NCBI RefSeq assembly: GCF_003334305.1
Contig: NZ_QOWS01000002.1
Reading direction: 5' to 3' (one strand)
From: Escherichia coli
GTDB taxonomy: Bacteria > Pseudomonadota > Gammaproteobacteria > Enterobacterales > Enterobacteriaceae
DNA: 64,000 nt
Of this stretch, positions 51,809 to 56,251 are shown in pieces. Position 1 is the first letter of the stretch. Each line of letters begins with the position of its first letter. Below the pieces are notes generated by a model. It ran no database searches. It saw only the letters and a list, made by a program, of their open reading frames with translations, and was not told where the DNA came from. The position numbers and the translations under genes were made by a program.

Positions 51809-51944
51809 TTTTGGTATGACCAATGCACCATTCATGTTATTCTCAATAGCGAAGAACATTTTCATTGCTGTAACCTGTTGTTAATTAAGAGCTATGTTAA
51901 TAACCATTAATTAACAATTGGTTAATAAATTTAAGGGGGTCACG

Positions 51945-53249: not shown

Positions 53250-53261
53250 TCGACGTACACT

Positions 53262-53348
53262 GGCGGATGTGGCATAAACGCCTCATCCGCCCTGGACAAA
53301 TGGTACGAGTGGTAGGCCTGATAAGACGCGTTAAGCGTCGCATCAGGC
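53262..53348. repeat. REP elements between ndh and ycfJ
   Basis: GGCGGATGTGGCATAAACGCCTCATCCGCC and GCCTGATAAGACGCGTTAAGCGTCGCATCAGGC palindromes. Confidence 0.65.
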
Positions 53349-53475
53349 ATTCCTTCAGACTCCTCCGAATCATTAAGTATTTCCAGCCATTCCCGCGCTT
53401 TTCATCTTCTGTCTGATAGCTGCTTTTCTCCTTCGCTTGCATGATTGGCATAACTGCAAAGAAGGAGGTGTTCCC

Positions 53476-54015
53476 GTGAATAAATCAATGTTGGCGGGTA
53501 TCGGGATTGGTGTCGCAGCTGCGCTGGGCGTAGCGGCAGTGGCCAGTCTGAACGTGTTTGAACGTGGCCCGCAATACGCTCAGGTTGTTTCTGCAACCCC
53601 AATCAAGGAAACGGTTAAAACACCGCGTCAGGAGTGTCGCAACGTCACAGTGACCCATCGTCGACCGGTGCAGGATGAAAATCGCATTACCGGGTCGGTG
53701 CTCGGCGCTGTTGCTGGCGGCGTGATAGGGCATCAGTTTGGCGGTGGTCGCGGTAAAGATGTCGCCACTGTTGTGGGGGCGCTGGGTGGTGGATATGCCG
53801 GTAACCAGATCCAGGGCTCTCTCCAGGAAAGCGATACTTACACGACTACGCAACAGCGTTGTAAAACGGTGTATGACAAGTCAGAAAAAATGCTCGGTTA
53901 TGATGTGACCTATAAGATTGGCGATCAGCAGGGCAAAATCCGCATGGACCGCGATCCGGGTACGCAGATCCCGCTAGATAGTAATGGGCAACTGATTTTG
54001 AATAACAAAGTATAA
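53476..54015 (+). CDS. ycfJ: Glycine-zipper outer-membrane protein YcfJ
   Basis: GTG start after an AGGAGG Shine-Dalgarno gives MNKSMLAGIGIGVAAALGVAAVASL... (179 aa); Gly-rich segment. Confidence 0.88.
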   Translation: MNKSMLAGIGIGVAAALGVAAVASLNVFERGPQYAQVVSATPIKETVKTPRQECRNVTVTHRRPVQDENRITGSVLGAVAGGVIGHQFGGGRGKDVATVVGALGGGYAGNQIQGSLQESDTYTTTQQRCKTVYDKSEKMLGYDVTYKIGDQQGKIRMDRDPGTQIPLDSNGQLILNNKV

Positions 54016-54037
54016 CAAGGCTGTACTCTGCAATTTG

Positions 54038-54071
54038 GCCCCTCATTCGCTCAGGCTGAGGGGCTTTTTTT
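54038..54071 (+). terminator. ycfJ rho-independent terminator
   Basis: GCCCCTCA...TGAGGGGC stem followed by TTTTTTT. Confidence 0.6.
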
Positions 54072-54076
54072 GCGAC

Positions 54077-54709
54077 TTATTTCACCAGTTCGGGCCATAA
54101 ACGCAAAGTCGTTCCGGCAATCTGCATTAGTTTTTCCAGCGATGCACCTTCGCGTGCGCTGATCGACATCCCCTGAATAATACAATTAAGGAATTCTGCC
54201 AGATGTGTCACGTCACAGTGGGTCGGGATTTCCCCGCGCGCTTGTCGTTGACATAAAAACTGCTGCAAAGTGCGCTCTTGCATCGCATGGCGTGATTTCA
54301 ACGTATTGGCGATATCTCCTGAATCTGGGGAGAGGGTGGTGCAGTTGTTGATCATGAAGCAGCCTGCCGGGGTGTCTTTGCTGGTAAAGCAGTTGGCGAT
54401 GGCAGCAAAATAGTCAGCCAGCGCAGACTCCACGCTTTTCTCTTCACAAAACAGCTGTGCTTCATGCTTAGCGGCAAAACGATCGATATAGCGGTCGAGA
54501 ACGGCACGAAATAACCCCTCTTTGTTGGTAAATTCCGCGTATAGCGTGGGCGCTTTGGCTCCGGTCGCTTCGACGAGGTCCGCAAGAGAAGTCGCTTCAT
54601 AACCGTGTTGCCAGAACAATTTCATGGCCTTATCAAGCGCGGCATCCCTGTCGAACACTTTTGGGCGGCCACGGCTTTTTTTTACACATTGTGTTGAGTC
54701 AGTTGCCAT
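54077..54709 (-). CDS. comR: TetR-family transcriptional repressor ComR (YcfQ)
   Basis: ORF trimmed to MATDSTQCVKKSRGRPKVFDRDAALDKAMKLFWQHGYEATSLADLV... (210 aa) with a TetR helix-turn-helix. Confidence 0.9.
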   Translation of the reverse strand: MATDSTQCVKKSRGRPKVFDRDAALDKAMKLFWQHGYEATSLADLVEATGAKAPTLYAEFTNKEGLFRAVLDRYIDRFAAKHEAQLFCEEKSVESALADYFAAIANCFTSKDTPAGCFMINNCTTLSPDSGDIANTLKSRHAMQERTLQQFLCQRQARGEIPTHCDVTHLAEFLNCIIQGMSISAREGASLEKLMQIAGTTLRLWPELVK

Positions 54710-54949
54710 GATGCCGTTGTACCTGGTGACTGTGAATGAAAGGTTATTATAAAAATAATCACCTCCGTTCACCAGTCCAGATCCCATAAAAATAATTGCT
54801 TTCTATTTAACTGAAATTTAAAGATTTTTAAATTAATTAATGATTGTTATAAAAAATATCTTGTATGTGATCCAGATCACATCTATCATTTAGTTATCGA
54901 TCGTTAAGTAATTGCTTGCGACGTCATTCATCTGCATAAGGCCACTATT

Positions 54950-55207
54950 ATGAAAAACGTAAAAACCCTCATCGCTGCGGCGATTTTAAGCTCCATGTCA
55001 TTTGCCAGCTTTGCGGCTGTCGAAGTTCAGTCAACGCCAGAAGGCCAACAAAAAGTCGGTACAATCAGTGCTAACGCGGGGACAAATCTGGGATCGCTGG
55101 AAGAGCAGCTGGCGCAAAAAGCGGATGAGATGGGCGCAAAATCTTTCCGTATTACTTCTGTAACCGGTCCGAATACCCTCCATGGAACAGCAGTAATTTA
55201 TAAATAA
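54950..55207 (+). CDS. bhsA: Multiple-stress-resistance protein BhsA (YcfR)
   Basis: 85 aa with signal peptide; YdgH/BhsA/McbA-like; divergent from comR. Confidence 0.92.
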   Translation: MKNVKTLIAAAILSSMSFASFAAVEVQSTPEGQQKVGTISANAGTNLGSLEEQLAQKADEMGAKSFRITSVTGPNTLHGTAVIYK

Positions 55208-55239
55208 GCATTAACCCTCATTAATGCCTGCTACTGCTG

Positions 55240-55280
55240 ATTTTTTCCCCGCGACATGCCGTGTCGCGGGGAGTTTTTTA
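55240..55280. terminator. Bidirectional terminator between the convergent bhsA and ldtC
   Basis: CCCCGCGACA...GTCGCGGGG hairpin flanked by T-runs on both strands. Confidence 0.6.
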
Positions 55281-55288
55281 TCCAGGAT

Positions 55289-56251
55289 TTACAGAGTTTG
55301 TGGGCTCACTTGATGACGGCGGACATCCACCGGCATCCCGGAACGGACATCCATCACATGTTGCATCACTTCAGCGTCAGTTTGTGCTGCATCTTTAAAT
55401 GATTGCATTGCGCTATTCAGCGTAATTGGCAGCAGCTGCGGATCGTCATCAATCTTCTCTGACAGCGGCTGATGTACTTCAACCAGACGCGCACCGTTTG
55501 GTTCGGCAGAGACTTTTATCGGAGTGTTGATGATATTCACTTTGGTGCCTGGGGTGACCTGGCTAAAGAGTGTTTTGATATCGTCATCCCGCAGACGAAT
55601 ACAGCCAGAACTTACCCGCATGCCAATGCCGAAATCGGCGTTCGTACCGTGAAGCAAATAAACGCCGCCATAGGCCGCCAGACGAATCGCATGATGGCCC
55701 ATTGGGTTATCCGGTCCAGCCGGCACTACCGCAGGCAACTCAATTCCCTGTGCTTTATAACGGGCGCGGATGTTTGCCGTTGGCGTCCAGGTTGGGTTTG
55801 CACGTTTGTCTGAAACGGTGGTCACCATTGTCGGTGTCAGCGTGTCACCACCTAACTGACCAATACCTATTGGATACACGGTTACCGAATTTTTACCCGG
55901 CGGGTAGTAATAGAGACGCAGCTCCGCAATGTTGATCACAATGCCTTCGCGCGGCGCGTCTGGAAGTAGGGTTTGCAACGGGATCGTTAACACGCTGCCC
56001 GCGCGCGGTACGTAAGGATCAACGCCGGGGTTAGCCTGTAACAGAGCGAGAAAGCCGACGTTATATTTTTTGGCGATGGCTTCCAGAGAACCACCGTCAT
56101 TTTCCACCACATGAAATTTGTTTTCGCCAACCAGACGACTGCCCGCTGGCGGCAGCGGCCAGGTGTTGGCTTTTGCCGGTAGCGCCAGCGCCACGGCAGC
56201 GGCGAACGTAAAAAACGTTAGCCAGCGAGAAAAACGCGTTTTGATCATCAC
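55289..56251 (-). CDS. ldtC: L,D-transpeptidase LdtC (YcfS)
   Basis: Probable GTG start (MMIKTRFSRWLTFFTFAAAVALALPAKA..., 320 aa); LysM and YkuD domains with a catalytic Cys in SSGCIRL. Confidence 0.9.
   Translation of the reverse strand: MMIKTRFSRWLTFFTFAAAVALALPAKANTWPLPPAGSRLVGENKFHVVENDGGSLEAIAKKYNVGFLALLQANPGVDPYVPRAGSVLTIPLQTLLPDAPREGIVINIAELRLYYYPPGKNSVTVYPIGIGQLGGDTLTPTMVTTVSDKRANPTWTPTANIRARYKAQGIELPAVVPAGPDNPMGHHAIRLAAYGGVYLLHGTNADFGIGMRVSSGCIRLRDDDIKTLFSQVTPGTKVNIINTPIKVSAEPNGARLVEVHQPLSEKIDDDPQLLPITLNSAMQSFKDAAQTDAEVMQHVMDVRSGMPVDVRRHQVSPQTL

Follow-up and report, generated by a model that had tools for sequence, protein, structure and literature searches.

The comR-bhsA locus

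The genes comR (ycfQ) and bhsA (ycfR, comC) lie back to back on the Escherichia coli chromosome. In the 64-kb stretch of DNA analysed here, which we refer to as the window, they occur in the gene order ndh-ycfJ-comR-bhsA-ldtC-mfd, with comR on the minus strand, bhsA on the plus strand and a divergent spacer of 240 bp between them (54710-54949; Table 1). The original prediction had described this spacer as AT-rich, flanked by genes for a TetR-family repressor and a small secreted stress protein, and typical of a local repressor and its target. All of this was borne out: the boundaries follow exactly from the open reading frames, the G+C content is 31% (12% for 54786-54860, 52% for the whole window), the gene identities are supported by Pfam domains, a BhsA equivalog score and a signal peptide, and the adjacent, divergent arrangement is kept in 68 orthologous loci and agrees with the literature on ComR and ComC. 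In E. coli genomes with 100% identity, RefSeq likewise gives the flanking genes as comR and bhsA.

The locus is part of the E. coli core genome. A 1.3-kb query across the spacer found matches in 5426 of 5426 complete E. coli genomes, with a coverage of at least 80% in 5419, and the spacer of K-12 MG1655 is identical to that of the window. The region 54000-55300 is also 100% identical to strain 2013C-3181 and others. When the window is aligned with K-12 on comR and bhsA, the coordinates of ndh are off by 17 bp, which points to an indel between ndh and ycfJ, at about 53250-53475 of the window. The window thus stems from a strain other than K-12.

Table 1. Features of the comR-bhsA region in window coordinates
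Feature	Position	Strand	Basis
comR (ycfQ), TetR-family repressor, 210 aa	54077..54709	-	ORF from annotated ATG, RefSeq, Pfam
Predicted comR -10 hexamer	54746..54751	-	Plus strand ATTATA, i.e. TATAAT on the minus strand; kept in 67/69 spacers
Invariant CCAG (minus strand CTGG), at the comR -35 position	54772..54775		Conservation across spacers
Upstream box ATTAATTAATGATTGTTATAAAAA, candidate auxiliary ComR operator	54832..54855		Core TAACGATCGTTA in most genera; second-best matrix match
Predicted bhsA -35	54860..54866	+	CTTGTA/TTGTAT in Escherichia; TTGAC(G/C) at 54860-54865 in 62/69 spacers
CRP binding site, core TGTGATCCAGATCACA at 54866-54881	54863..54884		Inverted repeat, consensus, conservation, ChIP-seq
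Predicted bhsA -10, TATCAT	54884..54889	+	TATCAT or TATGAT in 58/69 spacers
Candidate main ComR operator, 24-bp near-palindrome TTTAGTTATCGA-TCGTTAAGTAAT	54889..54912		Conservation, matrix, position
Conserved 5'-UTR blocks, GCGAC (54918-54922) and TTCATCTGCA (54927-54936)	54918..54936	+	Alignment
Shine-Dalgarno-like AAGG, 8 nt before the bhsA ATG	54938..54941	+	Sequence; AAGG or AGG in the alignment
bhsA (ycfR/comC), 85-aa DUF1471 stress protein with signal peptide	54950..55207	+	ORF, RefSeq, NCBIfam
BhsB small RNA, from the bhsA 3' UTR	55180..55279	+	K-12 annotation b4832 at 1169303-1169402, PMC8175672

The regulator and its target

ComR combines a TetR_N domain (E 2e-15) with a TetR_C_13 domain (E 2.4e-7), and its relatives in the PDB are all TetR-family proteins. 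The closest solved one (E 4e-32, residues 12-206 aligned) is CifR, the epoxide-sensing repressor of the Pseudomonas aeruginosa morB-cif system (PDB 6NSN; PMC10827105). In the divergent spacer of that system, CifR binds two operators of at least 23-27 bp, with one dimer per operator; recognition of the AT-rich outer minor grooves falls to an arginine at its N-terminus, and sensing of the inducer to a Gly-Cys pair (PMC10827105). Across 77 ComR orthologues, the helix-turn-helix region is essentially invariant, and the cysteines C8, C88, C107, C117 and C176 are each kept in at least 94%. In the alignment with CifR, the invariant pair G116-C117 falls on the sensing Gly-Cys, and the ComR segment SRGRPKVFDRD, of which the RGRP motif is kept, on the minor-groove-reading N-terminus. 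By analogy, the conserved cysteines suggest thiol-based sensing and not a classical metal site.

The relation between ComR and comC, i.e. bhsA, goes back to Mermod et al. (2012, Biometals 25:33), whose results are quoted here through later papers (PMC10141476, PMC4280137, PMC8464067). As cited in PMC10141476, ComR represses comC, the purified protein binds the comC promoter region at a site about 60 bp upstream of the gene and is released by copper, and ComR is reportedly free of autoregulation. According to a 2024 review, no direct copper binding by ComR has been reported. In a 2026 preprint, 2 mM copper raised bhsA 13.8-fold and comR 2.2-fold.

The target protein is a member of the DUF1471 (YdgH-BhsA-McbA) family. 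It matches the NCBIfam BhsA equivalog NF047859 over its full length with 137.4 bits (curated cut-off 90), and judged from the sequence, its N-terminus is a typical signal peptide, MKNVKTLIAAAILSSMSFASFA, followed by AVE. Its transcript also carries the small RNA BhsB, which we placed in the window from its K-12 position (K-12 coordinate = window coordinate + 1114123). BhsB ends at the bhsA terminator, for which a terminator scan found a stem at 55245-55273; it has been verified by northern blot and is linked to ompC and ytfK by RIL-seq (PMC8175672). In Rfam, it matched no family and gave only sub-threshold, terminator-like matches. The control region in the spacer accordingly has two outputs, bhsA and BhsB.

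Conservation of the spacer

To compare the spacer across species, we used a ComR scan of representative bacterial genomes, which covers 80 loci from Escherichia to Siccibacter, Kosakonia and Buttiauxella; 73 of them carry a divergent upstream bhsA orthologue. The alignment discussed in the following contains 69 distinct spacers of 238-250 bp, namely that of the window and those of the 68 loci with a fully extracted spacer, and spans more than 15 enterobacterial genera. Conservation is unevenly distributed along it, with a mean column identity of 0.78 for the whole spacer and of only 0.56 for 54759-54785.

Four loci have lost bhsA: those of Enterobacter sp. ENT03, Enterobacter sp. Bisph1, Pseudescherichia vulneris and Escherichia sp. 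ESNIH1. In each, a full-length comR (71-76% identity) abuts ldtC (at about 2375-2500 of the locus). The comR-proximal blocks of the spacer survive there over at least ~50 bp and up to ~100 bp, while the bhsA promoter, the CRP site and the element at 54889-54912 are all absent. From this pattern it follows that the left part of the spacer serves the expression of comR and the right part that of bhsA. Furthermore, the retention of comR in these four loci after the deletion of bhsA hints at ComR targets beyond the comR-bhsA locus. The reverse situation, a surplus of the system, is seen in Kosakonia sacchari and Kosakonia arachidis, which have two comR-bhsA pairs each, with all spacer blocks present in both copies.

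Predicted promoters

The conserved blocks delineate two predicted promoters. For bhsA, the -35 block has an identity of 0.97 across the 69 spacers, and the gap between TTGACG and the -10 hexamer measures 18 bp in 60 of them. This arrangement predicts that transcription begins near A54896 and that the 5' UTR is ~54 nt long. In E. coli itself, just three of the six -35 bases match the consensus, which is why a generic promoter scan of the spacer made no call there. The scan called only two weak sites, one of which we discarded as implausible, as it overlaps the comR start codon.

On the opposite strand, the predicted -10 hexamer of comR is a perfect TATAAT, separated by about 157 bp from the start predicted for bhsA. 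This hexamer is part of the invariant block ATTATAAAAA, which is also retained in the four loci without bhsA, and would place the comR start near 54739, with a 5' UTR of ~30 nt. A direct repeat of ~24 nt, which reads TTTTTATAA(T/C)... on the minus strand, occurs at 54731-54758 and again at 54832-54855, 101 bp apart. One copy contains the predicted comR -10 TATAAT; the other (TATAAC) coincides with the upstream box and may be a weak extra comR promoter or a protein site only.

The Escherichia lineage departs from the other genera in two places: its bhsA -35 reads TTGTAT where the others have TTGACG, and its upstream box (54838-54849) reads TGATTG where the others have CGATCG. Since two elements are weakened in this way, the basal expression of bhsA and its control may differ from those in Citrobacter or Enterobacter.

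Candidate ComR operators

Apart from the CRP site, the most conserved element among the 69 spacers is a 24-bp near-palindrome at 54889-54912, with a mean column identity of 0.93. Its 13-nt core TATCGATCGTTAA (54895-54907) is identical in 66 of the 69 spacers, and its ends are AT-rich and of the TTTA/TAAA type. It extends from -61 to -38 relative to the bhsA ATG and, counted from the predicted transcription start, is centred at +5.5, so that it overlaps this start. This position fits the reported ComR site about 60 bp upstream of the gene. A matrix derived from the element has its top match in the 64-kb window at the element itself, with 37 bits. Dyad symmetry by itself does not argue for a ComR operator in the E. 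coli sequence: 18 of the 24 positions are self-complementary, a value also reached by 105 of 500 spacer shuffles (21%). As the symmetry is not significant, the case for this operator rests on conservation, and in this regard its invariant core matches the invariant DNA-binding region of ComR.

A second, weaker copy of the element lies upstream. In 63 of the 69 spacers, the second-best matrix match is found 56-58 bp upstream of the main site, and in 88% it exceeds the 95th percentile of shuffled sequences. This upstream box has a mean column identity of 0.86, is centred at about -52.5 from the predicted bhsA start and overlaps a UP-element-like A-tract (54851-54856). In Escherichia it is degenerate, with 0.2-8 bits versus 34-37 for the main site. 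The spacing of 57 bp puts the two boxes out of helical phase, on roughly opposite faces of the DNA. We infer that both are ComR operators, the one at 54889-54912 being the main candidate and the one at 54832-54855 a candidate auxiliary site.

Several further observations concern sites resembling these boxes or the factors that might read them. The third-best match of the operator matrix, with 9.8 bits versus 37, is an AT-rich palindrome, ATTAATTAACAATTGGTTAATAAA, at 51906-51929, just upstream of ndh; two other genera have something similar, and it is probably an unrelated regulatory site of ndh. The consensus sequences of CpxR, IHF, Fur and MqsA were also compared visually with the conserved blocks, and none gave a fit across genera. 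Four GATC (Dam) sites occur in the AT-rich 240 bp, at 54780, 54869, 54875 and 54899; the CRP site contains two of these and the candidate operator has one at its centre, and methylation-sensitive binding is conceivable.

Two other explanations of the conserved element deserve attention. Firstly, the two CGATCG-centred boxes could be the sites of another regulator, with the true ComR site located elsewhere or poorly conserved. The link between ComR and these boxes is indeed indirect, bhsA is induced by many unrelated stresses, and the spacer contains further conserved blocks to which no role is assigned. Moreover, ChIP-exo of tagged YcfQ in K-12 gave no peak at bhsA; the three that it did yield, at cspA, metR and uxuA, were weak. 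We retrieved the peak sequences from their K-12 version 2 coordinates with an estimated shift of +1977, which is supported by the annotations of cspA, metR and uxuA. The sequences bear no similarity to the candidate operator and were rejected as a source for a ComR motif; the peaks are probably non-specific signals at active promoters. Against another regulator, comR is accompanied by the boxes in every locus with bhsA, including both copies in the two Kosakonia genomes, the invariance of the putative operator parallels that of the ComR DNA-binding domain, no further conserved palindrome remains for ComR, and the position of the CGATCG box agrees with the reported binding site. On balance, we find a different owner of the boxes improbable.

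Secondly, the block 54889-54925 could act as RNA, in the form of a 5'-terminal stem-loop (UCGUUA...UAACGA) that makes the bhsA mRNA more stable or provides a pairing site. The block does contain an inverted repeat, TCGTTA-N10-12-TAACGA, the minimum-energy fold of the E. coli sequence includes the TCGTTA/TAACGA hairpin, and for the named helix 81.5% of the alignment cells can pair, versus 15-53% with a slid partner. Yet the RNAalifold consensus amounts to only -0.77 kcal/mol, with four pairs and no compensatory change. Double-sided changes occur in no pair of the helix, and since the 5' arm is invariant, the shuffle control has no power to discriminate here. The folding energy of the E. coli leader is ordinary (z = 0.23; 116 of 200 shuffles fold as well), and Rfam has no family match in the spacer, even at E <= 1. 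An invariant 5' arm next to a drifting 3' arm is, in contrast, the pattern of a protein site. For want of covariation, an unusual folding energy and an Rfam match, we rejected an RNA element in the bhsA 5' UTR as the main explanation and consider it unlikely. We accordingly prefer to see the near-palindrome as a protein-binding site, with ComR as the putative ligand.

A CRP site in the predicted bhsA core promoter

The region is not a one-repressor switch, as its most prominent dyad is a CRP site. The original prediction had stated that operator dyads are not obvious by eye and had suggested a search for dyad symmetry. Such a repeat search returned a perfect inverted repeat with arms of 8 nt around a 2-nt centre, ATGTGATC-CA-GATCACAT, at 54865-54882, which had been overlooked and is the sole perfect dyad of the spacer. 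The perfect dyad belongs to CRP and is not a ComR operator; for the candidate ComR operator, with its 18 symmetric positions, the statement is fair. The core TGTGA-N6-TCACA occurs once in the 64-kb window, versus 0.06 expected occurrences, and the 22-mer around it agrees with the CRP consensus AAATGTGATCTAGATCACATTT in 18 of 22 bases. The core is found exactly and in the same place in 43 of the 80 orthologous loci, and with at most one mismatch in 66 of the 69 spacers. TCACA is present in 64 and (T/C/A)GTGA in 67 of these spacers, and the N6 centre has an identity of 0.73 versus 0.87 for the 16-mer, i.e. the pentamers contacted by CRP are kept and the centre is variable.

CRP has been reported to occupy this site in vivo. 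In a ChIP-seq study of the enterotoxigenic E. coli (ETEC) strain H10407, which is not the strain of the window, a high-confidence peak with the site TGTGATCTGGATCACA was assigned to ycfQ/bhsA (Haycocks et al., 2015; PMC4287617, Table 1). This site is the reverse complement of positions 54866-54881, so that the 16-mer is identical, and the flanking genes are the same. A literature search for the operator and dyad strings returned CRP papers only. A survey based on EcoCyc and RegulonDB assigns bhsA to an incoherent type-2 CRP feed-forward loop; in loops of this type, it describes CRP as a repressor (PMC6121374). The geometry fits this sign: with the promoter elements as predicted, the CRP site is centred at -22.5, between the -35 and the -10 of bhsA, from which we infer a repressive arrangement.

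As the only perfect dyad of the spacer, situated in the core promoter and thus in the classic position for a repressor, the palindrome might instead be bound by ComR, which would compete with CRP or replace it and leave the CGATCG boxes to another factor or to nobody; the wording '60 bp upstream' is loose enough to include a palindrome that ends 68 bp before the ATG. The palindrome is, however, a textbook CRP site that is occupied by CRP in ETEC H10407, and it is conserved only where CRP makes contacts. CifR requires at least 23 bp with AT-rich ends, which a G+C-richer palindrome of 16-18 bp does not offer, and the near-invariant 13 nt at 54895-54907 would be left unexplained. We regard binding of ComR to TGTGATC-CA-GATCACA as very unlikely. 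Lastly, a start of bhsA near 54915 would turn CRP into a class II activator at -41.5 (54873.5 + 41.5 = 54915), with TTAAGT or AGTAAT (54903-54911) as weak -10-like hexamers, but these match just three to four of six bases, the CRP site is enclosed by the elements of the conserved TTGACG-18-TATCAT promoter, and the database-derived classification lists CRP as a repressor of bhsA (PMC6121374), which makes activation highly improbable. In what follows, we take the palindrome as the CRP site and the near-palindrome downstream of it as the probable operator of ComR.

Relation to known systems

The locus described here is that of the E. coli ComR (YcfQ)/ComC (YcfR, BhsA) copper switch itself, with the same genes, orientation, repressor-target relation and spacer. 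The feature is real, and its regulator, target and CRP site are already in the literature and in databases; what we add is a map of the conserved blocks, drawn from the comparison of spacers, together with a specific candidate for the operator.

In its general layout, the locus resembles type I TetR-family pairs such as TetR/tetA and AcrR/acrAB (PMC6790063), in which a divergently encoded repressor controls a single local target, and the candidate operator would likewise lie over the predicted target promoter. Unlike in those pairs, the target is a small envelope protein and not an efflux pump, ComR has no reported autoregulation and the core promoter of bhsA contains a site for the global regulator CRP. 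The spacer of 240 bp is also slightly longer than the ~200 bp within which the majority of type I pairs are quoted to fall (PMC6790063).

The likeness to CifR is closer on the level of the regulator. Both repressor genes are divergent from their targets, the comR-bhsA spacer contains candidates for two long, AT-flanked operators, and ComR keeps the RGRP motif as well as G116-C117. The two systems differ in organism, targets and signal (epoxides versus copper), and autorepression, seen in CifR, is reportedly absent from ComR. The CifR mechanism can be carried over to ComR by analogy only.

A model for the control of bhsA

The gene identities, the CRP site and its occupancy in vivo, the ComR-dependent control of bhsA and the pattern of conservation are established, either here or in the literature. 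Combined with the predicted elements, they suggest the following model. The spacer would hold two back-to-back promoters of the sigma-70 type together with the sites that control bhsA, and comR would be transcribed leftward from its own promoter, with TATAAT on the minus strand. At the bhsA promoter, cAMP-CRP bound to TGTGATCCAGATCACA between the -35 and the -10, with its centre at -22.5, would exclude RNA polymerase by steric hindrance. ComR would most likely sit on the conserved 24-bp near-palindrome over the bhsA start and may also occupy the weaker copy that lies 57 bp upstream. On inactivation by copper or another thiol-reactive stress, ComR would leave the DNA, and bhsA and BhsB would be transcribed. 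We consider this model to be quite probable.

A more far-reaching version would join these elements with the CifR analogy. ComR would be a CifR-like repressor that places one dimer on each of two long, AT-flanked operators, which bracket the CRP-occluded core promoter; its release would come about through chemical modification of, or binding of a metal to, Gly116-Cys117, and it would have other targets outside the locus. We offer this reading tentatively and think it doubtful that it holds in all its parts.

Implications

This work refines a known system and does not discover a new one. It corrects the anatomy of the control region in that the dyad belongs to CRP, and the operator of ComR likely lies over the start site of bhsA. 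In E. coli, bhsA ranks among the genes with the strongest induction by copper, oxidants and other stresses, and a base-level map of its promoter indicates where catabolite control through CRP meets stress control through ComR, and offers precise targets for mutagenesis. If the more far-reaching reading were true, ComR would be a general sensor of thiol-reactive stress and not a dedicated copper sensor.
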